DNA of 64,000 bases from Heterodontus francisci (Eukaryota), in NCBI RefSeq assembly GCF_036365525.1, contig NC_090405.1, positions 55,530,308-55,594,307 of the forward strand. Reading direction: 5' to 3'. The position numbers and the translations under genes were made by a program. Shown here piece after piece: positions 1,428 to 63,768 of this stretch; within the stretch, counting starts at the first letter, position 1; each line of letters begins with the position of its first letter. The notes under the pieces are model-generated. The model had not been told where the DNA came from and made no database searches. It saw only the letters and a program-made list of their open reading frames with translations.

Positions 1428-2975
1428 AACAGCATCCCCTTTCTGTATGAGGTTAGATCCTGTGGAAAATGCAGTCTCCTGCTCCAGACAGAAGAGACAT
1501 TGTAATATCTGTTATTACTGATGGGACAATGTCATAAAATATCAGCAAAGACCCCTCCATGTGTTAAAGTCACAGTCCTTGAAATAACACCCTGTGATAT
1601 TACAGCACCAACGCTTAACCTGCTGAATTTATCACGTCTTTATCTGTTTTAATTTTTTATGTATTGACACAGTTTGCTGGTGATGACACACTTCCAGCCA
1701 ATCAAACACAATTTCTTTAGAAAGGTTCCAGATTCCCCAGTGAGAAAATGCCCGGGCACACGAAACGCTCAGACACACAGATCACAGGTTCCAGTTGTGC
1801 TAGGACTGTGCTGCATTTGCTAATCTCAGCTGCGGTAGTTAGGTGGCCGATGGCTTGGAGGGGGGGGGGGGGGGGGAGGTGGCAGTGCAGTGGGCAGGGG
1901 AATTTATTAACTTCAGTTCCATTAAGCCAGGCAGAGGCTTGGGGGAAAAAATCTCAGACACAATTCCTGTTCCTTGTGACTGCAGCCGAAAAGTGCATTT
2001 CCCCGTGGAGATTGAGGACAGGTTGGACTTCCTGTGAACTGTCGACACTCACTGTCCTTGGCTCACACTGAATAGTGGCCCGTGTATGATGTACCACAGG
2101 GCAGTTGGCGTCTATGAAACTGAGGCCCAGCAAGGGCAGCACCTTGGGAGAGGACAGGAATTTTGGGGGAAGAAACACTCAAGTTTACTTTTCTCGCCTT
2201 GCAAGTCTGTGTTTGAGTGTTTTTTTTTGTGTGGCTTGGTCATAATGAAGGTTAAAACATTTCCCTGAAGTGCAGGCTTCAGGGTGGACACAGGATGAAA
2301 CTGTTCAAAGTAAACCCTGCTGAAGAGCAACATCCAAGTCACACATCCCAAAGATAAATCTTTAAAAAATGGCAAAGTGAAACAGTGGAACGAGGACAAA
2401 ATGCTTTATCTTGTGTTCAAACTGAAGCGAAGCTCGGGTAGCAGCACCCTATCCACACATCAACCAGTCACAAGTATCTTCAGCAAGTGCCCTCAATTTC
2501 CAGGCGCGTGTCAGCAGAACCCCTTCAAGAATCTGGCTGTGATGCTGCTGGTTACAAACTGCAACTGACCATTTAATGTGAAGAGTTGTAGTCCAAGCCG
2601 TGGTAAATGGTGAATATACTGCAAGGTGCTGATGTGAAATCTACATGCAGTGGGCTGAGAAGGCAGCAGTCAGTGCTGTAACATCTACTGCCTTTGTGCC
2701 TTAACAACAACCTTGGTCTCAAAGCAGGTCAAAGTGCTCGAAAGAACTGTCAACTGAGTACCAAGTGGCACCTACTCACCAAGAATCTGCTCACCTGATG
2801 CTCAGCTTGGGATTCATCAGGATCACTCAATTCCAGACATCCATACAGCCTTGATTCAAAAAATGTACACAAAAGCTGAATTGCAGACGTGAGGTGAGAA
2901 TGACTGCCCCAACAAGGCAGCATTTGACCAAGTGTGGCATCAAGTTAATGGAGATTAAGTGGGAAACTCTACAGT

Positions 2976-3461
2976 GCCTGGAGATCCTGAGGGGTCTTAA
3001 CAGGGTGGATGTGGAAAGGATGTTTCCTCTTGTGAGAGAATCTAGAACCAGGGGACACTGTTTAAAAATAAGGGGTCGCCCATTTAAGACAGAGATGAGG
3101 AGAGCTTTTTTCTCTCAGAGGGTTGTGAGTCTTTGGAATTCTCTTCCTCAAAAGGCAGTGGAAACAGAGTCTTTGAATATTTTTAAGGCAGAGGTAGATA
3201 GATTCTTCATAAGCAAGGGGGTGAAAGGTTATAAATAAAAACAAGAAATACTGGAAATATTCAGCAGGTCTGGCAGCATCTGTGGAGAGAGAAGCAGAGT
3301 TAACGTTTCAGGTCAGTGACCCTTCTTCAGAAGGGGTGGAAGATCATTGGGGGTAACCGGGAATGTGGAGTTGAGGTCACAATCAGATCAGCCATGATCT
3401 TATTGAATGGTGGAGCAGGCTCAAGGAGCCGACTCCTGCTCCTAATTCATATGTTCGTATG
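2976..3461 (+). mobile_element. CR1 LINE 3' fragment, itself interrupted at ~3233-3332
   Basis: MFPLVRESRTRGHCLKIRGRPFKTEMRRAFFSQRVVSLWNSLP plus CR1 3'UTR (GATCAGCCATGATC...CTCCTGCTCCT). Confidence 0.9.
3298..3332 (-). ncRNA. Minimal hammerhead ribozyme motif in a Penelope-type repeat fragment (3233-3332)
   Basis: Minus strand UU-CUGAAGA-AGG(GUCACUGA)CCU-GAAA-CG-UU-AACU: intact core boxes, palindromic ACGU stem III, stem I only 2 bp. Confidence 0.6.
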
Positions 3462-5224
3462 TCCATACCTAGGACAAAGGAAGATGGTTGTGGTTGTTGG
3501 AGGTCAATCTTCTGAGCCCCAAGACATCACTTCAGGAGTTCCTCAGGACAATAACCTGGGCCCAACCATCTTCAGCTGCTCCATCAACGACCTTCACTCC
3601 ATCATAAGGCCAGAACATTGCAAAGTGTTCAACCCCATTTGCAATTCCTCAGATAAAGAAACTGTCCAGACCCGCAACATTCAGACTTGGGCTGACAAGT
3701 GGCAAGTAACTTCCATATCACACAAGTGACCAACTCCAACAAGAGAGAATCTAATCACCTCCCCTTGACACTCAATGGCATGACCATCGCTGAATCCCCC
3801 ACCATCAGCATCCTGGGTCACCATTGGCCAGAAACTCAATTGGAGCAGCCACATAAATACTGTGGTTACCAGAGTAGGTCAGAGGCTGGGAATTCTGTGG
3901 TGAGAGGTTCATCCCCTGACTCCCAAAAGCCTCTCCTCAACCTGCAAGGCTCAAGTCAGGAGTGTGATGGAATACTCTCCACCTTCCTGGATGAGTGCAG
4001 CTCCAACAACACTCAAGAAACTCAACACTATCCAGGACAAAGCAACCTGCTTCATCGGCACCCTATCCACCACCTTCAACATTCACTCCCTCCACCATAG
4101 GCACACCATGGCCACAAGATGCACTGCAGCAACTTGGCAAGTCTCCATCAACATCACCTACCAAATCCGTGACCTCTAGCACCTAGATAGACAAGGGCAG
4201 CAAGTGCATCTGCAAGGGTGCACCTGCAAGTTCCCCTCCAAGTCACACACCAACTGACTTGGAACTATATCACCGTTCCTTCATCGCTGCTGTGTCAAAA
4301 TTCTAGAAGTTCCTACCTAACAGCACTGTGGGAATCATTTCACCAAACGGACTGCAGCAATTCAAGAAGAAAGCCCAATATCATCTTTTCAAGTGCACCT
4401 AGGGATGGGCAGTAAATACCAACCTTGCCATCGACATCCATATACTGAGAGTGAATTTTAAAAAAGGAAGTGTGACACTAACTCATCCTCTCCTGGCAGG
4501 TAAGTCCCCAACAATGTAAGATGAACACATCAGTTGCAATTTAATTCAGTGCAGCTGATGGAAGAGGTGCTGGTTCCATTCAGAAACAATTACAGTCTGG
4601 ATACGGCACTGCTGTCATTCTACAATCATTGTACAAAGCAGAAGATAGTGTAATTATCCTTAGTTCTTAGGACGAACACAGCTCTATTTGTCCCTTCTTT
4701 TATTCAGATGTGTTCAGGGTTGAGTGCGGGTGAAAGGGTGTAAACTGCTCCTAGATACCAGTGCAGGTGACTGTGGGCAAAGTGCTTTAAATCCTTGTCA
4801 GAGCCCCTCTGACCAGGCAGCTGGAGTGTCCGGGAAAGCAGCCCAGTGACAAGTTCTTGAACCTTCATTGTGCTGTTCAACCCTTGTTAAATGGGGAGCT
4901 GTTGGTATAGCTCAAGTGAGGATGAAGACACTTCATATGCAAAGTGAAAAATTAAATGTTCTCTCCCCCTATAAAAAAGATAAATAAATCTGATCGTCTT
5001 TCCGTTTTATCTTCTCTAGGGATGTGTTGGGAAGAGCTGGGACTCCGTCCCCATCTTGCATGGCTGGCGGCAGCTGTGCAACCATTTCTTTGTTATGTCA
5101 CACTCAACTGACCAATGGCTCACTGGGGTGTGACTGAGCCATAAAATGCAGACAGGTGCCAATTTCAAGTTTGCTGCCCTCTGCTGGAACCTCCTCTTCC
5201 TGATCACCATCCTGGGACTGCAAA

Positions 5225-5402
5225 GTCAGAAACAAAATACTGTGATGCTGGAAATCTAAAATACAAACAGAAAATGCTGGAAATACTCAGCAGGTCTGGC
5301 AGCATCTGGTGGAGAGAGAAACAGTTTAAGGTTTCAGGACAATGACCTCCCATTGTTCCATCAGACCGATGTTCTGCTGAAAGGTCATCTACCTAAAATA
5401 TT
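5225..5402. mobile_element. Penelope-type repeat fragment with head-to-head degenerate hammerhead halves
   Basis: Minus copy of the 3233/8093 family followed by plus-strand GTT-CTGCTGA-AAGGTCATCTACCT-AAAA. Confidence 0.55.
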
Positions 5403-8035: not shown

Positions 8036-8092
8036 CTGGATCCAGAAAGGGAGGGGGAAAACACACAGAGACATGAAATAAACTTTATAAGC

Positions 8093-8227
8093 TTCTGAAG
8101 AAGGGTCACTGATCTAAAACGTTAACTCTGCTTCTCTCTCCACAGATGCTGCCAGACCTGCTCAGTATTTCCAGCATTTCTTGTTTTTATTTCAGATTTT
8201 CAGCATCTGCAGTATTTTGCTTTTACT
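8093..8227 (+). mobile_element. Penelope-type repeat fragment with a mutated hammerhead (GAAA to AAAA)
   Basis: TT-CTGAAGA-AGGGTCACTGATCT-AAAA-CGTTAACTCTG...CACAGATGCTGCCAGACCTG; further degenerate copies at ~17210-17280, ~24435-24520 and ~32810-32860. Confidence 0.65.
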
Positions 8228-9766: not shown

Positions 9767-9803
9767 CTGCAAGTAAGCCAGAGAAATTCAAATTAGTATC
9801 TGA

Positions 9804-10120
9804 GGGGTGCGTTAGCATAGTGGTTATGTTACTGGAGTAATAATTCAGAGAACAAGAATTCAAATCCCATCTTAATAGTGTGAGAATTTGAAATCAGTTT
9901 TAGAAAACCTGGTAAAAGTCGCTATGAATCTGTCAGATTGGCACTTGGATCACTAATGGAAACTTGCTGTCCTTACCCATCTGGTCCTATATGTGACTCT
10001 AACCCCACACCAATGTGGCTGACTCGTCACTGCCTTCTTAACAAGCCATCCAGTTGCATCCAGGGACAGGCAATAAATGCCAGCAAAACCCACAGCCCCA
10101 CAATTAATTTTGAAAAAGAA
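9804..10120 (+). mobile_element. SINE: tRNA-derived head plus tail of the 25864 LINE family
   Basis: TAGCATAGTGG A-box, TTCAAATCCC B-box, GCTGTCCTTACC...ATGTGACTC body, GGCAATAAATGCCAGC tail. Confidence 0.7.
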
Positions 10121-10649
10121 ACCTGGAGATTTACTGGTTCTGTTATATTGACTGAGGCTAAGAGAGCCTCTGTCATTCAATATGTGGTCACTCCTGCCTG
10201 GACACATCACTAATCATAAGGCATCTTTTATTCGATGTGATACATAACAAAATGTGATACAACAAGCCAGCATCTTCAAGGGTCTTTCTTCATCTGTGAG
10301 CCTGGAGATGGAGCCTCTGCAGATTATTCGATTGTGGGAGTCGTCACACTTTCCAGCAGGGGTCACCGGTTACTAATCAGGAGCAGGAACACCGGCCGAA
10401 TAACGTAGGGGTGCTGAGGCCAACTATGGTGGCTGTGATTGAGATCAGGTGGCTCAGCATAAATCCAGGATTCAGCCTGGCCCTAACATGCTCTGCCTAG
10501 CACAGCACAACACTGTCCTTACACACTGAGGCATGGCAGCATATTCACAAACTGCCCCATGGCCCAGCTGGGGAAGGTAATAAAGAATTGGAATTTTATT
10601 CCTTGATTCATTCATTTCGTTTTTAATCTTAGAACCTACAAAGCCGTAC

Positions 10650-24097: not shown

Positions 24098-25413
24098 CTG
24101 CAGGGAAAATCAGGAGGGGATTCAGAAACTGGTCCAAGTTTCTATTAAGTACTTGTGATAAACTCTCCCCAGCAGCCCAAGAGGTTAAAGCACTGCCCAG
24201 AGCAGTCTGGTCTGAAAGACTCTTTATTACATTAAAAGGTTCTCTGTAGGTACAGATAGTTGTCATTCTGGAGACCAGCAAGGCTCAGCACCTTTCAATG
24301 ATGAAGCGAGGAAATAGAAGAGGTAAGATCAACGAAGACAACCCAGGCCCAGGATTGATGCTGGGGGCTTCCTACTCAATGCATGATTCAAGAGCCACTG
24401 ATGGTGAAAACAGCTGTAAAAAACTGGCATAAGAAAAGAAAATACTGGAAATATTCAGCAGGTCTGGCAGCATCTGTGGAGAGTGAAACAGAGTTAACAT
24501 TTCAGATCGATCACCTTTGAATAAAAAACTGGTGCCACTTTGTAACCAAATCCACTTTTTGACATGTGCTGCTCCTCTCACACAACCTTCCCATTCTCAA
24601 TGACCTGTGGGCCACAAGAACAGTACAGAACAGAAATGCAGAGGAGGGAAGGTCATTGGGTCCAACAGAGCTCAACCTTCCAGCTCCTTAACTTCCCCAT
24701 CTCACATCCACTGTTCCCAACCATTAGCATTCTGAGTATTAGTATTCTTCATATTAGCAGCAGCACTTGTGCCATTCTGCACAAGTACCTGTGTAAACTC
24801 ACTGCATGCCATTAATCACTGGTCAGTAAAGGGCTGCACGGAGCAGGGACACTTCACATCAGTATTACAGGGTAGAGTGACTGTTGCAGGTTAGTGTCAT
24901 GTTTCTGTAGTTAGACAAATGGGTATAAAGATCATGAGTTCTTAAACAGTTACAGAACCAGAGACAGACATCATCCTGTGCAGGGGTGTATCCGAAACAC
25001 GGCTTTTAGTAGAATGGGTGAAAATGCCTGGATTCAATTATTCTAACACAAGCCTCCGTGTACTAACCTTAACTCCCCTGAAGGAAAACAATTCCAGCAG
25101 TTCAGTCACACACACCTAGGTTTTCATTGGCATCTCCAAGCACCAGCCCCTCAGTCTCCCCTTCCTCATAGGCTCCAAATCTCTCACCTACATACTCGTT
25201 CTCCTCCCTGCATCCTCTTGGTCATGAAACCAAGACTCACTGCTCCATCTCCTACCGTAACTCACTCTTTGCCATAACCTACAGAAACTTACCCCTCTTT
25301 CACCCAATCTTGGTGCCACCTAACCACTACTATCTAAATTTCCTGGTCTTCCCGACGCTGATGGTCCCACCCGAGTTCTCAATCACAGCAAATATTCTGG
25401 ATGCCTTCCTCAC

Positions 25414-25863: not shown

Positions 25864-27710
25864 GGAGAGGCGGTGGCGTAGTGGTATTGTCATTGGACTA
25901 GTAACCCAGAGATCCAGGGTATTCCTCTGGGGACATGGGTTCAAATCCCACCACAGCAGAAGGTGAAATTTGAATTCAATTAATAAATCTGGAATTAAAA
26001 GCTAGTCCAATGATGGCCATGAAACCATTGTCAATTGTTGTAAAAATCCATCTGGTTCACTAATGTCCTTTAGGGAAGGAAATCTGCTGTCCTTACCTGG
26101 TCTGGCCTACATGTGACTCCAGACCCACAGCAATGTGGTTGACTCTTGCATGCCCTTTGAAATGGCCTAGCAAGCCACTCAGTTGTATCTAACCGCTACA
26201 AAGTCAATAAAAAAGAATGAAACCGGATGGACCACCCAGCATCGACCTAGCCAAGCTGTTCCAGTACAACTACAACACTGGCATCTCCCCAGCAATGTGG
26301 AAAATTGCCCAGGTATGTCTGTATACAAAAAGCAGAACAAGTCCAACCCGGCCAACTACCGCCCCATCAGCCTACTCTCAATCATCAGTAAAGTGATGGA
26401 AGATGTCATCAACAGTGCCATCAAGCGGCAGTTGCTTAGCAATAACCTGCTCAGTGACGCTCAGTTTGGGTTCTGCCAGGGCCACTCAGCTCCTGACCTC
26501 ATTACAGCCTTGGTTCAAACATGGACAAAAGAGCTGAACTCAAGAGGTGAAGTGAGAGTGAGTGCCCTTGACATCAAGGCAGCATTTGACCGAGTATGGC
26601 ATCAAGGAGCCCTAGCAAAACTGAGGTCAATGGGAATCAGGGGAAAAGCCTCCGCTGGCTGGAGTCATACCTAGCGCAAAGGAAGATGGTTGTGGTTGTT
26701 GGAGGTCAATCATCTGAGCCCCAGGACATCACTGCAGGTGATCCTCAGGGTAGTGTCCTAGGCCCAACCATCTTCAGCTGCTTCATCAATGACCTTCCTT
26801 CAATCATAAGATCAGAAGTGGGGATGTTCGCTGATGATTGCACAATGTTCAGCACCATTCGTGACTCCTCAGATACCGAAGCAGTCAGTGTAGAAATGCA
26901 GCAAGACCTGGACAATATCCAGGCTTGGGCTGATAAGTGGCAAGTAACATTCGCGCCACACATGTGCCAGGCAATGACCATCTCCAACAAGAGAGAATCT
27001 AACCATCTCCCCATGACATTCAACGGCATTACCATCGCTGAATCCCCCACTATCAACATTCCAGGGGCTACCATTGACCAGAAACTGAACTGGAGTAGCC
27101 ATATAAATACCGTGGCTACAACAGCAGGTCAGAGGCTGGGAATCCTGAGGCAAGTAGCTCACCTCCTGACTCCCCAAAGCCTGCCCACCATCTACAAGGC
27201 AGGGGTGCGATGGAATACTCTCCACTTGCCTGGATGGGTGCAGCTCCAACAACACTCAAGAAGCTCAACACCATCCAGGACAAAGCAGCCGGCTTGATTG
27301 GCACCCCATCTACAAACATTCACTCCCTCCACCACCGACGCACAGTGGCAGCAGTGTGTACCATCTACAAGATGCACTGCAGCAACTCACCAAGGCTCCT
27401 TAGACAGCACCTTCCAAACCCGCGACCTCTACCAACTAGAAGGACAAGGGCAGCAAATACATGGGAACATCACCACCTGCAAGTTCCCCTCCAAGTCACA
27501 CACCATCCTGACTTGGAACTATATTACCGTTCCTTCACTGTCGCTGGGTCAAAATCCTGGAACTCCCTTCCTAACAGCACTGTGGGTGTACCTACCCCAC
27601 ATGGACTGCAGCGGTTCAAGAAGGCATTTCACCACCACCTTCTCAAGGGCAATTAGGGATGGGCAATAAATGCCAGCAACGTCCACATCCCATGAATGAA
27701 TTAAAAAAAA
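25864..27710 (+). mobile_element. tRNA-headed L2/CR1-group LINE with an internal deletion of the endonuclease
   Basis: A-box TGGCGTAGTGG, B-box GGTTCAAATCC; RT motifs NYRPISLLS, LDIKAAFD, PQGSVLGP, FADD; A-tail at ~27703-27711; frameshifted. Confidence 0.9.
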
Positions 27711-29300: not shown

Positions 29301-30749
29301 AGGGCCCAGACAGTTGGTAGGGTGAAGGCAGGTAAGGTGAAGAGGTGGGTACTGGGATGTGGGGAATGATGGAAGTTGGGTCAGTGAGATTGAGGAATAT
29401 GATGAGAAGGTGGGTAGGTGTATCTAGATCTGTCCAAAAGGGACAGGCTTTTTGGGGCTAAAGACATGTTTCTGATCCTTGCTCTTTGCCTGGGCATTAG
29501 GTGTTATTCTTGATCTTTTCAGGTATGTCTACAGAACATCACTGGGTTAGTGTGTAAACCCAACGGCCCCATCTAGGCTATCACAAGATCGCAATTGTCA
29601 GAAACAACAGAATATTTTCCAAAGCAGTTTTATTGCTTTTTTTTAAGGCTCAATGAGATATGGCTCCCTGCCAATCAAAAAGATCATCAGTGCCTCTGAG
29701 CCAGCCTGACAGAGCCTCGACCTCAGTGAAGCTGCAACATGCACTTCAGTATACCCTGTGCACAAAGGAACGTTACCAAATCCAACCACTCAAAATGGAT
29801 TGTCTGCAGTGAACACAACTGCGAAAATGTTTAATTAACGATGCTTACTGGTGCAAGAAAAAAATTAAACCAACTTTAACAAGCCTGACAGTTGTTTGCT
29901 TTATTCGGTCATGATCCATTTCTTTCAATTAGTTCTGCAACACCAATCCACATCCCACCCAGCTGCTGCATGCCAACACAGGTGGTAAACACACCTGCAG
30001 GCTTGTCACAGCTCTCAACAAGACCGAGCATGCCTACACGCACCTTCACATTCTAAACAGGGAAACAGATAACTGCTACACCCCTGGCATGCTGGTAATG
30101 GAAGCTGTCACCCTGTCCAACCCAGCGCAGCTACTGTGAACAATAAAGCTAATCCTATGCACTCTGGAATTCTCTCTCTCTCCTCCCCAAGACACTCACG
30201 AGCGCTGGCTATCCCTAGCATCTCACTAACACAGCTATTCTTAATATTAAAGGTCAAACAGAGTGCTAGCGGGGGTCGGGGTGGGGGGCATGGTAGCTGA
30301 GACCACCTTGTGCTTATCCAACGTAAACACAGGTACGTTCCAGCAGGGCTCGTTGAACAGCAGTCAAAAGGAGCCTTGGTTGGCTTTCTCCTTCACTAGC
30401 CCAAGCTTATCGCGGTCAATCTGGTGCTTCGAAGGCTACCCAAGACAACGCTGGCGATTTCAATTCAGGCCAGGGGTATTCTGATCAGTCTGGGTCAGTG
30501 CTACAACACACAGTGCATTTACTCAGTGGGTTGTTTACTGAGGGAGCCCAGATTTGTTATTTTTCTTCTTTCATCGTCTGGTTGTTTTCATTCAGGTTAT
30601 CTCAGTATTTAATGCTCCATCTGACTGTGCTCAGTTCTTCTTTTCAATAGCACAAAATCTTTACAAGTGCTTCCTGTTTATAAGTCATGCCATAGAATCA
30701 GAATTATGTTTCACTGATTTATTCTTATTATAACTTTGCATTGTTCCAT

Positions 30750-32480
30750 AGGTGTCAGCTTGGCTCCATGGTTGCACTCTCACTTTTGAGCCAGAAAGGG
30801 GGGGGTACGAGCCTTGCATAATTTAGGTTGACACTCGAGGCCAGTGCTGCACTGTCAGAGGGACAGTACTGAGGGAGTGCTGCACTGTCGGAGGGTCAGT
30901 ACTGAGGGGGAGCTGCACTGTCAGAGGGTCAGTACTGAGGGAGCGCTGCACTGTCAGAGGGTCAGTACTGAGGGAGTGCTGCACTGTCGGAGGGTCAGTA
31001 CTGAGGGAGAGTTGCACTGTCAGAGGGTCAGTACTGAGGAAGCGCTGCACTGTCAGAGGGTCAGTACTGAGGGAGTGCTGCACTGTCACAGGGTCAGTAC
31101 TGAGGGAGTGCTGCACTGTCACAGGGTCAGTACTGTGGGAGTTCTGCACTGTCAGAGGGTCAGTACTGAGGGAGAGCTGCACTGTCAGAGGGTCAGTACT
31201 GAGGGAGAGCTGCACTGTCACAGGGTCAGTACTGAGGGAGCGCTGCACTGTCGGAGGGTCAGTACTGAGGGAGTGCCGCACTGTCGGAGGGTCAGTATTG
31301 AGGGAGAGCTGCACTGTCAGAGGGTCAGTACTGAGGAAGCGCTGCACTGTCAGAGGGTCAGTACTGAGGGAGTGCTGCACTGTCACAGGGTTAGTACTGT
31401 GGGAGTTCTGCACTGTCAGAGGGTCAGTACTGAGGGAGAGCTGCACTGTCAGAGGGTCAGTACTGAGGGAGAGCTGCACTGTCACAGGGTCAGTACTGAG
31501 GGAGCGCTGCACTGTCGGAGGGTCAGTACTGATAGAGTGCCGCACTGTCGGAGGGTCAGTACTGAGGGAGCGCTGCACTGTCGGAGGGTCAGTACTGAGG
31601 GAGAGCTGCACTGTCAGAGGGTCAGTACTGAGGGAGCGCTGCACTGTCAGAGGGTCAGTACTGAGGGAGTGCTGCACTGTCACAGGGTCAGTACTGAGGG
31701 AGTGCTGCACTGTCACAGGGTCAGTACTGAGGGAGTTCTGCACTGTCAGAGGGTCAGTACTGAGGGAGAGCTGCACTGTCACAGGGTCAGTACTGAGGGA
31801 GCGCTGCACTGTCACAGGGTCAGTACTGAGGGAGCGCTGCACTGTCGGAGGGTCAGTACTGAGGGAGTGCTGCACTGTCGGAGGGTCAGTATTGAGGGAG
31901 CGCTGCACTGTCGGAGGGTCAGTACTGAGGGAGAGCTGCACTGTCAGAGGGTCAGTACTGAGGGAGCGCTGCACTGTCGGAGGGTCAGTACTGAGGGAGC
32001 GCTGCACTGTCGGAGGGTCAGTACTGAGGGAGTGCCGCACTGTCGGAGGGTCAGTACTGAGGGAGTGCTGCACTGTCAGAGGGTCAGTACTGAGGGAGAG
32101 CTGCACTGTCAGAGGGTCAGTACTGAGGGAGAGCTGCACTGTCAGAGGGTCAGTACTGAGGGAGTGCTGCACTGTCAGAGTCAGTACTGAGGGAGAGCTG
32201 CACTGTCAGAGGGTCAGTACTGAGGGAGTGCTGCACTGTCGGAGGGTCAGTACTGAGGGAGTGCTGCACTGTCGGAGGGTCAGTACTGACGGAGCGCTGC
32301 ACTGTCGGAGGGTCAGTACTGAGGGAGCGCTGCACTGTCGGAGGGTCAGTACTGAGGGAGTGCTGCACTGTCAGAGGGTCAGTACTGAGGGAGTGCTGCC
32401 TACATAACAATACTGATAAGTAATTCATTAGGAGTGAAGTCCTTTGAAACATCTTGAATGTGTGAAGGGCCTTTTTAATC
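30750..32480 (+). mobile_element. Deu-domain-type SINE remnant (SacSINE1/AmnSINE1-like) containing the expanded 33-bp array
   Basis: Head GTCAGCTTGGCTCCATGGTTGCACTCTCAC...GAGCCAGAA...AGGTTGACACTC before the array; tail CCTACATAACAA...TTCATT...TGTGAAGGGC after it; family name from memory. Confidence 0.6.
30842..32400 (-). repeat. 33-bp minisatellite, inverted relative to 1-1105
   Basis: (GTGCTGCACTGTCAGAGGGTCAGTACTGAGGGA)n, about 47 units. Confidence 0.96.
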
Positions 32481-35337: not shown

Positions 35338-35680
35338 GTTTAGTTTAGAGATACAGCACTGAAACAGGCCCTTCGGCCCACCGAGTCTGTGCCGACCATC
35401 AACCACCCATTTATACTAATCCTGCACTAATTCCATATTCCTACCACATCCCCACCTGTCCCTATATTTCCCTACCACCGACCTACACTAGGGGCAATTT
35501 ATAATGGCCAATGTACCTATCAACCTGCAAGTCTTTGGCATGTGGGAGGAAACCGGAGCACCCAGAGGAAACCCACGCAGACACAGGGAGAACTTGCAAA
35601 CTCCACATAGGCAGTACCCAGAATTGAACCCGGGTCACTGGAGCTGTGAGGCTGCAGTGCTAACCACTGCGCCACTGTGC
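35338..35680 (-). mobile_element. V-SINE (HE1-like)
   Basis: Minus strand GCACAGTGGCGCAGTGGTTAGCACTG, GGTTCAATTC B-box, V-domain TGTGGAGTTTGCAAGTTCTCCCTGTGTCTGCGTGGGTTTCC, CR1-like tail GGGCCGAAGGGCCTGTTTCAGTGCTGTATCTCT. Confidence 0.88.
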
Positions 35681-36119
35681 TGATGGCTGTATCAGCGCGC
35701 TACTGCCTGCCCCTGGCACGACTGACCAGGCCCTATGCCCTCATCTTGCTAACTGGCCGGCCACCACATAATGGCACTCAGCTGGCCGCTTCCGCCCCAA
35801 ACGGCATTGCTGTCCGTTTCCAGGTCCATGCTGAGACCCACAGCACTGACATTAAACTCTGCCCATGCTGACTCGGTTCACATGGGAAGAAATGGTTACT
35901 TGGATAAGTACCAGAGGACGATCAGCTCATGTGGAATTGTAGCCTCTGCTCAAGGCAAGAGAGAAAATGTAATACCAAAGTCGTCTGGATTGGACCCAGG
36001 TGCTCATGTTGTTTGCTTGGTAAAATGCAAGTTACAGTACATAGGAAACATAAATACGCAGATGATCAGAGTGCAGGGATAGACACGTAGATAGGTCAGG
36101 CTGGAAGACAAGGACTAAC

Positions 36120-36274: not shown

Positions 36275-36778
36275 CTATTAAAGATGCAACAGCAGTCTGT
36301 CAGTACAACTCACCCAATCCAATTGTAGCTGGTAACCTACCTCTACATTACCCGCTGCTCCCCACATTTTCGGGATCAGAGGACAAGGCCAACTCTGCTG
36401 TCTTTACTATGTTTAGGACAATGACAAGTGCACCAAGATCACTTCTGAGTAGCTCCCTCAATGGCCGAATGGGAAAGGTGACTGAGTGGTGAGGCACTGT
36501 CCCATTCAGGTTCCATTCCTGGTCAGTCAGTAACTGATCTTAGCCGGTGTGGGACTGAGTCTTACAGGATCAGAGGTATTACAATCAATCAGTCTCAAAG
36601 TCCCTAGGCTAGGGATGATAAAATCAGTCAGGATTTCCTATTTAGTGATTCCCGCAGGGGAATGTGGTGTGTGAACGTGAGATAAGGATAGGGTCAGGCT
36701 GTGGTGCCCTCCATGGCCAAATATTCTCCCACATACTGGGTGAGAAAATTAATGTTGAGTTTGGTTGGGTACAAATCG

Positions 36779-37575
36779 GGGAGGCGGTGGCGTAGTGGTA
36801 TTGTCACTAGACTAGTAACTCAGAGACCCAGGGTATTTCTCTGGGGACATGGGTTCGAATCCCACCACAGCAGAAGGTGGAATTTGAATTTAATTAATAA
36901 ATCTGGAATTAAAAGCTAGTCCAATGATGGCCATGAAACCATTGTCGATTGTTGTAAAAACCCATCTGGTTCACTATAGTCCTTTAGGGAAGGAAATCTG
37001 CTGTCCTTACCTGGTCTGGCCTACATGTGACTCCAGATCCACAACAATGTGGTTGACTCTGAAATGGCCTCTGAAATGACCTAGCAAGCCACTCAGTTGT
37101 AAATAACTGCTACAAAGTCAATAAAAAAGAATGAAACCGGACGGACCACCCAGCATCGACCTAGGCATCGGAAACAACAACGGCAAACCCAGCCCTGTCG
37201 ACCCTACAAAGTCCTCCTTACTAACATCTGGGAGCTTGTGCCAAAGTCAGGAGAGCTGTCACACAGACTAGTCAAGCAACAGCCTGACATAGTCATACTC
37301 ACAGAATCATACCTTACAGACAATGTCCCAGACACTGCCATCACCATCCCCGGGTATGTCCTGTCCCACTGGCAGGACAGACCCAGCAGAGGTGGTGGCA
37401 CAGTGGTATACAGTCGGGAGGGAGTTGCTTTGGGAGTCCTCAACATCGACTCTGGACCCCATGAAGTCTCATGGCATCAGGTCAAACATGGGCAAGGAAA
37501 CCTCCTGCTGATTACCTCCCACTGCCCTCCCTCAGCTGATGAGTCAGTACTCCTCCATGTTGAACACCACTTGGA
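36779..37575 (+). mobile_element. 5' part of the tRNA-headed LINE, including the start of the APE endonuclease
   Basis: Same head as 25864 (B-box GGTTCGAATCC), then KVLLTNIWELVPKSGELSHRLVKQQPDIVILTESYL...DRPSRGGGTVVY. Confidence 0.9.
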
Positions 37576-37955
37576 TGTAGCAACAGCCTGCCACGTAAAA
37601 CAGGCATTAAATTAAAAGAAAATCTTACCCCTACCTCCCCTGAAGGCACGTGCTCCAATCGGCACTCAGTGTTTGGGTTCAGCATTTGGTACCAAAGGTT
37701 GATTGGTGCCCATGGAAACCGTGTCGCAGCAAAAGTCAGGAGAGGTGGGGAAGAAAATTGGGGAGGGCCGTGATTAAAATCAAATAAAGGCATATTAAAT
37801 TGATGTGTTAATCTTTTAAACTGAGAATCACTTGAGCCAGTAAACAACAATCAAACTCCAAACTCTCAGTCTTTAATATTCCTTAAACCTGTTATAACCA
37901 ATATTAATGCACAGATACTCTCAAGGTAGGAGTTGTCGATTTGTGCGACTCTTAC

Positions 37956-45811: not shown

Positions 45812-45950
45812 ACTACATGTGACTCCAGGCACACAGCAATGTGGTTGACTCTTAACTCTGAATTCAGTTGACAAGGGCAATTAGGGATGGGCAACAAATG
45901 TTGTCCTTACCAGCAATGTCCACATCCTATGAAACAAATTTTGTAAAAAA
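45812..45950 (+). mobile_element. 5'-truncated SINE of the head+tail type seen at 9804
   Basis: CTACATGTGACTCCAG...CAGCAATGTGGTTGACTCTT joined within ~20 nt to AAGGGCAATTAGGGATGGGCAA. Confidence 0.75.
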
Positions 45951-58294: not shown

Positions 58295-58409
58295 CTACAG
58301 CATTTAGACAGTCATTAGTATGAACACAACATCATCAAAAATAAACTGAAAACAGCAGGAACAAAAAACAATAATCCTGTCAACTGGTGAATATCCTCCC
58401 CTATCCCCC

Positions 58410-58585
58410 CCTCGCTGGGTCAAGTTCCTGGAACTCCCTCCCTTACAGCACTGTGGGTGTACCTATACCACATGGACTGTAGCGGTTCAAGAAGGCGCCT
58501 CACCACCACCTTGTCCAGGGCAATTAGGGATGTGAAATAGCCAGCCTGGCCAGATTGCTCATATCCCAAAACTTAATTTTTAAAA
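58410..58585 (+). mobile_element. 3' end of the tRNA-headed LINE family
   Basis: TCGCTGGGTCAA...CCTGGAACTCCCT...GGGCAATTAGGGATG. Confidence 0.8.
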
Positions 58586-60570: not shown

Positions 60571-61584
60571 AGAAGGAACGGCACCTTGGGCCACCAATCA
60601 GAGGGCATTCATTTAACAGTCAGCCCCTCTAAGAGAGAAAAGGAAAGAAAATCAGCCAAAAGTTGAAATCTGTCCAAGTTGCTTTGCCAATGCAGTTCTC
60701 CCTCCCCGAATGAACTAAATTCTGGTGTAAAATCTTGGATATATAAATGACTCTCAGCTCAAAGCAAGATATGCTGGATAGTGGGGAGATTTTTTTTCTT
60801 AAAGAAAAGAACACATAAATGAGGTTGAAGCACATTATTGGGCAACATTCCAACACCTAAATGTTAAGTGGTTGGCAAGGAACAAACCCCTGGGTTTAAG
60901 GTGAATTAAAATAAAACAAAATACTATTTAACCACAGTTTTATAGGCCTGACAAGATGCATTTCAGAAGAGAATCTGTAATTAAATATTACGCAAATAGT
61001 ATCCAGATTCAGAGAGGTAGCATCACATTAAAGACTGTTGGAGTTAAGCACTAATTAATAAAATGTGGGTCCAGTTTTTGAATCCTGGTCCTGTGGTTTG
61101 TGTTTGAATTCGATTCTCTCTAGGGCCACCTTGTTTAAGGCCTCTTCAGCACAGAGACTGACCGGACCCAACAGGAGATGAAATAGTCACATACTTGGCA
61201 GTTTTTGGTCCCATTATGTAAATACCTCAATATCACTACACTGCGGGAAATGTTATGTAAAGACAGCACACAGCTTGCCTTAAGTTGAAGCATGGATTAG
61301 TTAGCCGGCTACATCAGCCATCAAGAAACAGGGAAGGCGAGTGTGGGATGCCAGAAAGCTGGGAATCATTATCTGTATGAGACAAGCAAGGATGTTATTG
61401 GGACTTCTGAAGAGGTTGAGAGCAGCAAATTAAAATATTGAAAGAGAGAATGATGCTGCCTGCTGGGCTACAGCTTGGAAACAGAGAATCTCTCTCACAT
61501 GCATACATGCTCACACATGCTCTTATGATCAATCACATACTCATTGAGCCCGATTGTAACTCTGTGCAAGTGGGTGGGTTTTGA

Positions 61585-63087
61585 ATGAGTTCATGGGATG
61601 TGGGCGTCACTGGCTAGAACAGCATTTATTGTCCATCTCTAATTGCCCTTGAGAAGGTGTTGGTGAGCGGCCTTCTTGAACTGCTGTAGTCCTTGGAGTG
61701 TAGATACACCCACAGTGCTTTTAGGAAGGGAGTTCCAGGATTTTGAACCAGTGAAGGAATGGCGATATAGTTCCATGTCAGGATGGTGTGTGGCTTGGAA
61801 GGGAACTTGCAGGTGGAGGTGTTCCCACGCATCTGCTGCCCTTGGCCTTCTAGGTGGTAGAGGTCGCGGGTTTGGAAGGTGCTGTCGAAGGAGCCTTGGT
61901 GAGTTGCTGCAGTGCATTTTGTAGATGGTACACACTGCTGCCACTGTGCGCCGATGGTAGAGGGAGTGAACGTTGGAGGTAGTGGATGGGGCGCCAATCA
62001 AGTGGGCTGCTTTGTCCTGGATGGTGTCGAACTTCTTGTGTTGTTGGAGCTGCACCCGTCCAGGCAAGTGGAGAGTATTCCATCACACTCCTGACTTGTG
62101 CCTTGTAGATAGTGGACAGGCTTTGAGGAGACAGGAAGCAAGTTACTTGCTGTAGGATTCCGAGCCTCAGACTTGCTCTTGTAGGCAAGTATTTAAGTTT
62201 CTGGTTAATGTTAACAACCCAGGATGTTGATAGTGGGGGATTCAGTGATCATAATGCCATTGAATGTCATGGGGAGATGGTTAGATTCTCTTTTTTTGGA
62301 AATGGTCATTGCCTGGCACTTGTGCAGCACGAATATTGCTTGCCACGTATGAGCCCAGGCCTGAATGTTGTCCTGGTCTTGCTGCATGTGGACACAGACT
62401 GGTTCAGCTTCTGAGGAGTCGCGAATGATACTGAACACTGTGCAATCATCAGTGGACATCCCCACCTGACCTTATGATTGAAGGAAGGTCATTGATAAAG
62501 AAGTTGAAGATGGTTAGGCCTTGGACGCTACCCTGAGGAACTCCTGCAGTGATGTCCTGGGGTTAAGATGACTGGCCTCCAACAACCACAACCATCTTCC
62601 TTTGTGCTAGGTATGACTCCAACCAGCGGAGAGTTTTCCCCCCGATTCCCATTGACTCCAGTTTTGCTAGGGCTCCTTGATACTTTACTTGGTCAAATGC
62701 TGCCTTGATGTCAAGGGCAGTCACTCTCACCTCACCTCTGGAGTTCAGCTCCTTTGTCCATGTTTGAACCAAGGCTGTAATGAGGTCAGGAGCTGAGTGG
62801 CCCTGGCGGAACCCAAACTGAGTGTCAGTTATTGCTGAGTAAGTGCTGCTTGATAGCACTGTCGACAACACCTTCCATCACTTTGCTGATGATTGAGAAT
62901 AGACTGATGGAGCAGTAATTGTCTGGATTGGATTTGTCCTCCTTTTTGTGGAGGGGACATACCTGAGCAATTTTCCACATTGTCGGGTAGATGCCAGTAT
63001 TGTAGCTGTACTGGAACAGCTTGGCTAGGGGTGCAGCTAGTTCTGGAGCACAGGTCTTCAGTACTACCGCTGGGATGTTGTCAGGGC
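61585..63087 (-). mobile_element. RT and 3' part of the tRNA-headed L2/CR1-group LINE family
   Basis: PDNIPAVVLKTCAPELAAPLAKLFQYSY, LDIKAAFD, MEYSPLAW; tail GGGCAATTAGAGATGGACAATAAATG. Confidence 0.92.
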
Positions 63088-63768
63088 ACATGGATGGACA
63101 CGCAGCAAACAGTCCATTTAGGCGGGGTATCTTCTCTTGGTGCACGGATGCTGATGGCTGTGAAGGCCAATCCTTGAGAGGCGGTTCTGCCACAAGTGCT
63201 GCAAGTGAAGCTGCCAAGTGACACTGTGAGTTGTTGTTTTTGATGTTGGTGCCTGTTGCCAAGCTGCTGTAGCAACTGTGGTAGTGCACACCAGCCCAGA
63301 GGATGTGGTGCCATTTCCCTCTTTCGTCAGCTACTTGACTCCCAGGTGATAGTCGACATTTAGGGCCCTCATGTCACGTATGCAAGGATCTTTGAAGCAG
63401 AGCTTTGGGTGCCCCGGCTACCTCACCATACAGGTAGTCCTTGGATATGTGACCGTCTTCTATCCTGCGGACGTGTCTGATTTACCAAAGCCGCCTCTTT
63501 TTGATTAGTGCCAACACACTTGGGAGCTCTGTCTTTGAGAGGACTGCTGCATTTGTGATTTTGTCCTGCCAGGGTATACCCATAATGCATCGCAGACAGC
63601 GAAGATGGAAATTATTGAGCTTCTTTTCCTGGTAGCTGAAAGTCACCCATGTTTCACAACCATACAGCAAGGTGCTGAGAACACAGGCCTTATAAACCAT
63701 TAGCTTGGTGCTATTCCATGCACGCTTCACAAGTCGGCCAAAGGTGGTAGCTGCTTTCCCTATGCATG
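63088..63768 (-). mobile_element. RTE LINE 3' fragment
   Basis: VYKACVLSTLLYGCETW...FHLRCLRCIMGIPWQDKITN and C-terminal FTCSTCGR. Confidence 0.88.

Follow-up and report, generated by a model that had tools for sequence, protein, structure and literature searches.

Background

LINEs are held to be transcribed by RNA polymerase II (Pol II), and the processivity of Pol III to limit the length of SINEs, in the available parts of PMC5786205 and PMC10886601, the former adding that SINEs cannot encode a protein. According to this usual split, LINEs are Pol II-transcribed and coding, SINEs Pol III-transcribed and non-coding, and an abundant vertebrate LINE driven by a tRNA-type promoter would break it. 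The closest described elements are the elasmobranch Zenon LINEs, for which PMC13343379 (2026) provides, in the parts available, seven consensus rows of 2886-3314 nt from five species, as deduced from the row labels (CarCar_Zenon-1, RhiTyp_Zenon-1, ScyCan_Zenon-1, HypSab_Zenon-1 and SquAca_Zenon-1/2/3). Elasmobranch Zenons are >84% identical to one another in the five species, which include a ray, and reside in no repeat repository; Zenons lack ORF1 and end with a poly-A tail. The terms "tRNA" and "polymerase III" have no matches in the main text of that paper, nor has "tRNA" in the available text of its supplement, or in the available text of the whale shark preprint 10.1101/443036. A literature search conducted outside Repbase, Dfam and most subscription journals retrieved no paper on a tRNA-derived head of these elements, or on an autonomous LINE driven by Pol III.

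Here a stretch of 64,000 nt from the genome of Heterodontus francisci (the window) has been analysed. LINE copies found therein belong to the same family described in PMC13343379, and resemble the published elements in the first 400 nt, in the size of about 3.3 kb, in the lack of ORF1 and in the A-tail; the tRNA-derived head which opens the published rows goes unremarked in the text of that paper, as far as available.

Family assignment and anatomy of the copies

Copy A (Table 1) is identified by its sequence as a decayed copy of an abundant, already catalogued elasmobranch Zenon LINE, 3.3 kb in length, with a single ORF encoding an APE endonuclease and a reverse transcriptase (RT). Published rows were compared by eye over the first 400 letters of each. 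Copies A and B match all seven elasmobranch Zenon rows over the 400 nt shown, from the first G's to the start of ORF2, and a 13-mer of the window matches five of them. The suspicion of the first-pass annotation that the family may have been catalogued was thus correct. Both the family and the lack of ORF1, a published trait of all Zenons in the parts of the source available, were already known; the tRNA head is a real, conserved and apparently unremarked feature of a known family. The absence of ORF1, also anticipated by the same annotation, was confirmed: about 325 nt separate the 5' end from the ORF2 frame, and the longest upstream ATG frame, 51 codons in copy A, is not kept in copy B.

In an RT tree of 34 rows, built with 32 of 111 candidates and no named Zenon protein, copy B groups with unnamed single-ORF relatives (82/97, not starred), outside the starred group with the CR1 of the window. 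Identity to the CR1 copies of the window is 23-35%; this, the separate RT branch and the lack of ORF1 led to reject an assignment to canonical CR1, and copies A and B are not L2 elements either. SINE2 was also considered for the whole element. The A/B-box head fits, but a 3.3-kb family carrying APE and RT is neither short nor non-coding, and only the relatives at 9803 and 45813 are both.

Table 1. Positions of Zenon-related features in the window
Feature	Position	Strand	Remarks
Copy A, decayed tRNA-derived head	36778..36872	+	A box 36788-36798, anticodon-arm-like stem, extra hairpin, B box about 36852-36862
Copy A, conserved leader body, common to the SINE	36873..37100	+	By eye unlike the Meta, Deu and UCON3 domains
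Copy A, A-rich linker; LINE-specific sequence begins	37101..37130	+	Length differs among published rows; copy B has the joint of the SINE at the corresponding site
Copy A, frame of 46 codons opened by conserved ATG	37131..37271	+	One base off the endonuclease frame; ATG in 6/7 published rows
Copy A, stop-free ORF2 frame	37103..37582	+	Basic N-terminal extension, then first half of APE endonuclease
Copy B, head and leader, as in copy A	25864..26249	+
Copy B, frameshifted ORF2: RT and C-terminal part	26250..27650	+	Joined to leader by internal deletion
Copy B, 3' UTR	27651..27710	+	AATAAA at 27665, A-tail; common to the SINE; target duplication <=3 nt
Copy C, 5'-truncated	61579..63094	-	85% identical to B
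Copy D, older, 76% identical to B	2730..4445	+	Two pieces, 2730-2944 and 3464-4445, split by other repeats
Copy E, 3' end only	58380..58552	+
Old SINE, related head without extra hairpin, same body, tail of the LINE	9803..10121	+
5'-truncated SINE copy, body end joined to LINE tail	45813..45933	+

Copies A and B have head and leader in common, 390 nt at 93.3% identity, in register from the first bases. The claim of a common start with A/B boxes and leader therefore stands, the start of copy A moving one base upstream, from 36779 to 36778, in register with copy B at 25864. The A box (TGGCGTAGTGG) is found 10 nt in, at 36788 and 25874, and the B-box core 65 nt past the start of the A box, at 36853 and 25939. 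The long spacing is due to an extra hairpin, missing in the older related SINE at 9803. This hairpin (36828-36848 and 25914-25934) resembles a duplicated anticodon arm, and its stem features changes on both sides between the SquAca and the CarCar/ScyCan rows (by eye, in the portion published rows display). A regular-expression search of the 64 kb for A and B box pairs on both strands yielded only copies A and B, and a separate SINE at 35674-35629 (-). ARAGORN called no tRNA gene in the window, where Rfam produced chance-level matches only, and the head of copies A and B is thus a decayed tRNA. Run on 43 of the 82 relative loci, ARAGORN called no tRNA; the tool also misses the decayed head of the shark.

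The leader had been supposed to run straight into ORF2 in both copies. This is true for copy A, where APE sequences follow (Pfam Exo_endo_phos, E 2.7e-4, below the gathering cut-off), but not for copy B, in which the RT (RVT_1, E 1e-15 and 3e-13) was brought next to the leader by the internal deletion of about 1.4 kb at 26249/26250, with the 5-nt CCTAG microhomology on both sides. The deletion explains why copy B has no endonuclease, and the leader-to-RT join is not the native layout. A further effect of the deletion, at 26217-26318 (+), is that the RT side can be read in frame from the conserved ATG, otherwise off-frame, for 59 codons up to a frameshift; this fusion may be a chance event (1 in 3). 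Copy A stops abruptly at about 37582, and has no 3' tail. The poly-A tail is a run of nine A's at the end of copy B, and is decayed in C and D.

The 5' end of the family

The tRNA head opens all seven published elasmobranch Zenon rows, from five species (by eye, first 400 nt). Hence the head is not a stray SINE, and its separate insertion as such is ruled out. In contrast, one coelacanth (LatCha) and two hagfish (EptBur) Zenon rows have no such head, and carry T4 or longer runs in their first 400 nt. The A box is kept in seven of the seven elasmobranch rows and the B-box 10-mer in six, whereas the sequence between the boxes differs. When the six B-box 10-mers were searched in the first 400 letters of more than 900 CR1-group rows, only six elasmobranch Zenon rows were matched.

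Logan contigs of four runs, from four organisms, were aligned to copy B, on which about 510,000-750,000 contigs were placed per run in X1, X5 and X7, and 29,545 in X17. Contig depth, which measures neither copy number nor start, strand or cap, behaves alike in all four runs: close to zero on either side of the element, it increases in the bin with the head and persists into the LINE-specific leader. Coverage by X17 is not read as a sign of expression, and the small-share runs X19 and X20 do not enter into these results. With the APE piece as query, phmmer retrieved 26 proteins at E <=1e-10, and seven of the ten looked up are whale shark gene predictions. Residues derived from the leader precede the APE, at other loci, in the predicted whale shark peptides P0071 and P0082 (tblastn), and in P0067 by eye. 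Whether full-length elements begin at the tRNA head was the check proposed in the first-pass annotation, and rows and contig depth agree that they do. At the level of consensus sequence, this shows that the head is the 5' end of the family in five species.

SINE relatives and other repeats

Comparison of the window elements shows that a SINE has head, body and tail in common with the Zenon LINE. All four runs contain joints from the body end (26147-26185) to the tail (27629-27647), which correspond to the SINE form. The SINE may be either the LINE with the ORF deleted, or the donor of the 5' module of the LINE. The body was not recognized as a Meta domain, since four motifs of the window have no matches in the available supplements of PMC7245038, and by eye it has no clear match in the Meta, Deu and UCON3 domain alignments of the same supplement.

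An older SINE-like repeat, external to the Zenon consensus, lies directly upstream of copy A at 36455-36750 (+), in which TGGCCGAATGG at 36462 resembles an A box, and a stretch near 36509 a B box. A distinct tRNA-headed SINE is located at 35500-35682 (-), its A and B boxes being 45 nt apart, and resembles the shark V-SINE HE1. A repeat found at 3233-3333, 5230-5347, 8092-8222 and 24419-24516 may be of the same kind. One 33-nt minisatellite forms two arrays in opposite orientation, at 1-1156 and 30711-32200, and several other minisatellite arrays are scattered across the window.

Reading frame and translation start

No ATG reads into the APE frame of copy A, and nine ATGs are found upstream. 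An ATG sharing the APE frame occurs at 37076, but its third codon is a stop in both copies and in six of the seven published rows, as far as displayed. It was discarded as ORF2 start because of this stop and of the variable spacing to the ORF (55, 55, 55, 51, 54 and 47 nt by eye); whale shark P0071 does not support it, as the peptide changes frame. The ATG at 37131 is present in six of the seven rows. In copy A it is one base off the APE frame, as it is by eye in the row of the ray, the one published row which is both intact and visible as far as the APE frame. The alignment of the relative P0108 begins with its residue 3 at 37133, in the APE frame; the ATG at 37131 is thus correctly placed, but in the wrong frame. 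A downstream indel may account for the off-frame ATG in the other consensus rows.

At about 40% identity, P0186, P0108 and P0172 are the closest full-length relatives. Each is a single protein, 962-983 aa long, having a Met some 20-30 residues ahead of the first APE motif, and contigs of 3.6-4.0 kb carry two of the three; a Met of this kind is missing in the shark element. The 390-nt leader of copy B folds better than its shuffles (z -3.2), whereas the fold of the head by itself is not significant (z -1.6 and 0.0). The missing in-frame ATG hints at an unusual translation, and we infer either a non-AUG start or a -1 shift for ORF2.

Additional relatives were sought in other collections. The APE query against longer proteins, three scans of viral contigs, and a metagenome scan with the APE alignment gave no match. 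A second metagenome scan returned 80 loci, the six closest of which (50-58%) stop short of their own 5' ends, and a scan of genome contigs gave two distant matches. Loci L081 and L082 are LINE-like RT frames (35-37% identical to the query) on contigs of prokaryote metagenome-assembled genomes, and are probably eukaryotic contamination. A Heterodontus FERM-domain protein (P0002) and a Cetorhinus exoribonuclease isoform (P0008) start with Zenon RT-region residues, either by exonisation or as an annotation artefact. The distant LINE proteins P0003, P0005, P0012 and P0015 carry an N-terminal xxNPGP/HPGP motif resembling 2A peptides; the shark element is without it.

The lack of an in-frame ATG might suggest that the headed copies are chimeras of SINE and LINE which are not autonomous, and depend in trans on an unseen Zenon whose 5' end is of the ordinary kind. 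Internally deleted copies are indeed common (copy B, and whale shark P0081, P0084 and P0086), and an intact ORF2 is rare among full-length copies (0/2313, 1/1419, 3/612, 0/59, 1/294 and 0/396 in the published counts available). Broken ORFs are however expected in old copies. Moreover, every elasmobranch Zenon consensus displayed in PMC13343379 is headed and none has another 5' end, and identity of the rows above 84% over five species, ray included, fits a protein under selection. Such an origin of the headed copies is very improbable.

Pol III terminator motifs

The first-pass annotation had noticed that TTTT is absent from the sense strand of copies A, B and C, and frequent in CR1. The motif is indeed missing in all three copies, and occurs seven times in each of two long (2.2 kb) CR1 copies. 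In line with the caution expressed there, the absence is by itself weak evidence: copy by copy it does not exceed chance (dinucleotide shuffle, P 0.51, 0.15 and 0.16 for A, B and C); over the non-redundant 2.25 kb, 3.4 motifs are expected on base content (P 0.03), and 1.3 when protein and third-position bias are kept in a codon-aware null (P 0.23).

TTTT and TVTTT are the shortest working Pol III terminators, according to the available text of PMC8466645. Taken together, the two motifs are missing in copy B (5.1 expected, P 0.004), and are found once in copy C (4.6 expected, P 0.049), as TCTTT, and once in copy A (2.7 expected, P 0.22), as TATTT, neither of the two being present in B; none occurs in the A+B ORF, where the codon-aware null predicts 3.4 (P 0.016). 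These counts cover about 2.3 of the 3.3 kb, copies B and C are homologous, and since several T-run measures were tried, P values are nominal. The CR1 copies contain 12 and 10 motifs versus 9.7 and 9.9 expected, and antisense strands are at expectation as well. None of the 55 control LINE ORFs (4 of 59 were left out for N), which come from other hosts and are mostly richer in T, is devoid of TTTT/TVTTT, the lowest ratio being 0.28. T-rich 5-mers occur once versus 5.9 expected, and controls never fall below 0.52 of expectation. A-, C- and G-rich 5-mers are not depleted, the depletion being restricted to T and to the sense strand. Sense-strand depletion of Pol III terminator motifs thus exceeds that of the controls. 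Codon choice for Phe is not skewed (3 TTT, 10 TTC), and loss of Phe was dismissed as a sign of T avoidance, as it is not shark-specific (2.1% Phe, versus 2.3% in the relative P0108).

Depletion could have causes unrelated to Pol III. The LINE may have taken the 5' module of the SINE, by template switch or by recombination in the common leader, and still rely on Pol II for its RNA, as other LINEs are held to do (PMC5786205, PMC10886601, parts available). Pol II could start from an internal promoter in the body, or TFIIIC could merely keep chromatin open, and selection against cryptic splicing or early polyadenylation, among other pressures, may have removed the T-runs. The chance-level absence of TTTT by itself, the AATAAA found 35-40 nt ahead of the A-tail in the 3' tail, and the 5' UTR of lepidopteran Zenon, which has no Pol III promoter in the available text of PMC6740152, are compatible with a head acting as passenger or helper. 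Yet neither the canonical CR1 of the window nor the 55 control ORFs underwent a comparable loss of terminators, and a capped RNA must pass nine upstream ATGs to reach a frame without ATG. In addition, a start about 10 nt ahead of the A box is expected for Pol III, and this is where the 5' end lies in all published rows, as displayed. Pol II transcription beneath a borrowed head is on balance unlikely, though it deserves consideration.

A proposed model for Zenon propagation

The reading favored here, at a probability of roughly 0.55, is that elasmobranch Zenon would be an autonomous LINE driven by a SINE-type internal Pol III promoter, purged of terminators and translated in a non-standard manner. 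According to this reading, TFIIIC would bind the A and B boxes of the head, and Pol III would start at the first G, cross 3.3 kb, as the purging of terminators would make possible, and stop at flanking T-runs. Translation of the uncapped RNA would be unconventional, the structured leader plausibly serving as entry site, with ORF2 starting either at a non-AUG codon or, after initiation at the conserved ATG at 37131, by a -1 shift. As in other LINEs, target-primed reverse transcription would allow the protein to copy the RNA beginning with the 3' tail; the same protein would also move the SINE.

A division of labor could be alternatively imagined, in which Pol III RNAs made from the head are the templates for insertion, and the protein is translated from capped Pol II read-through RNAs started at host promoters. 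Dual use would account both for the depletion of terminators, necessary to a full-length template, and for the difficulty of translating an uncapped RNA; but LINE proteins show cis preference, acting mainly on the RNA that encoded them, and the missing in-frame ATG is left unexplained. Although 39% of whale shark CR1-Zenon-like LINEs are intronic (10.1101/443036, text available), this division of labor appears improbable.

Coming back to the Pol III-driven autonomous element, a more detailed history may be tentatively proposed, with the odds somewhat against it: ahead of the divergence of sharks and rays, the Pol II promoter would have been replaced by one of tRNA type, served by Pol III; the 3-kb ORF would have been purged of Pol III terminators, the uncapped RNA would be translated through the structured leader with no AUG in frame, and SINEs would be simple deletion products. 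If the model is true, elasmobranch Zenon would be a SINE encoding its own enzymes, one deletion would be a direct route from LINE to SINE, and a natural Pol III mRNA of 3.3 kb would become available for the study of cap-independent, possibly non-AUG, translation. The promoter is 90 nt long, with two boxes which can be mutated, and the consensus is published, which makes the test a cheap one. Should Pol II drive Zenon, an unremarked exchange of modules between SINE and LINE in a known family would remain.

Comparison with known systems

Several described elements, considered here on the available parts of the respective papers, share traits with the shark LINE and its SINE. In Lepidoptera, a single-ORF Zenon similarly gives rise by internal deletion to Persaeus (PMC6740152), a short element combining the 5' end of Zenon with its 3' end. 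Persaeus, however, has no homology to tRNA and no Pol III promoter, whereas in the shark both the LINE and the short element are headed. Bipartite SINEs (PMC5786205) consist of a tRNA head, a LINE 5' UTR and a LINE 3' UTR, which is the layout of the shark SINE, but are reported in that paper for RTE and Vingi only, and the head is on the SINE, not on the LINE. RTE-1_DAn and relatives are LINEs said to contain a tRNA-like sequence (PMC5786205); they belong to the RTE clade, and the similarity is treated as an accidental match. SacSINE1, paired with L2-2_CM of cartilaginous fishes (PMC5499810), is a tRNA-headed shark SINE with a LINE-derived tail, but combines a Deu body with an L2 tail, whereas the body of the window SINE is by eye unlike Deu, and its partner is Zenon. 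Finally, Cassandra, Helenus and Ajax (TRIMp3; PMC10886601) are retrotransposons other than SINEs endowed with a Pol III promoter; in contrast to the 3.3-kb coding Zenon, they are short non-coding LTR elements of 0.3-1.3 kb.
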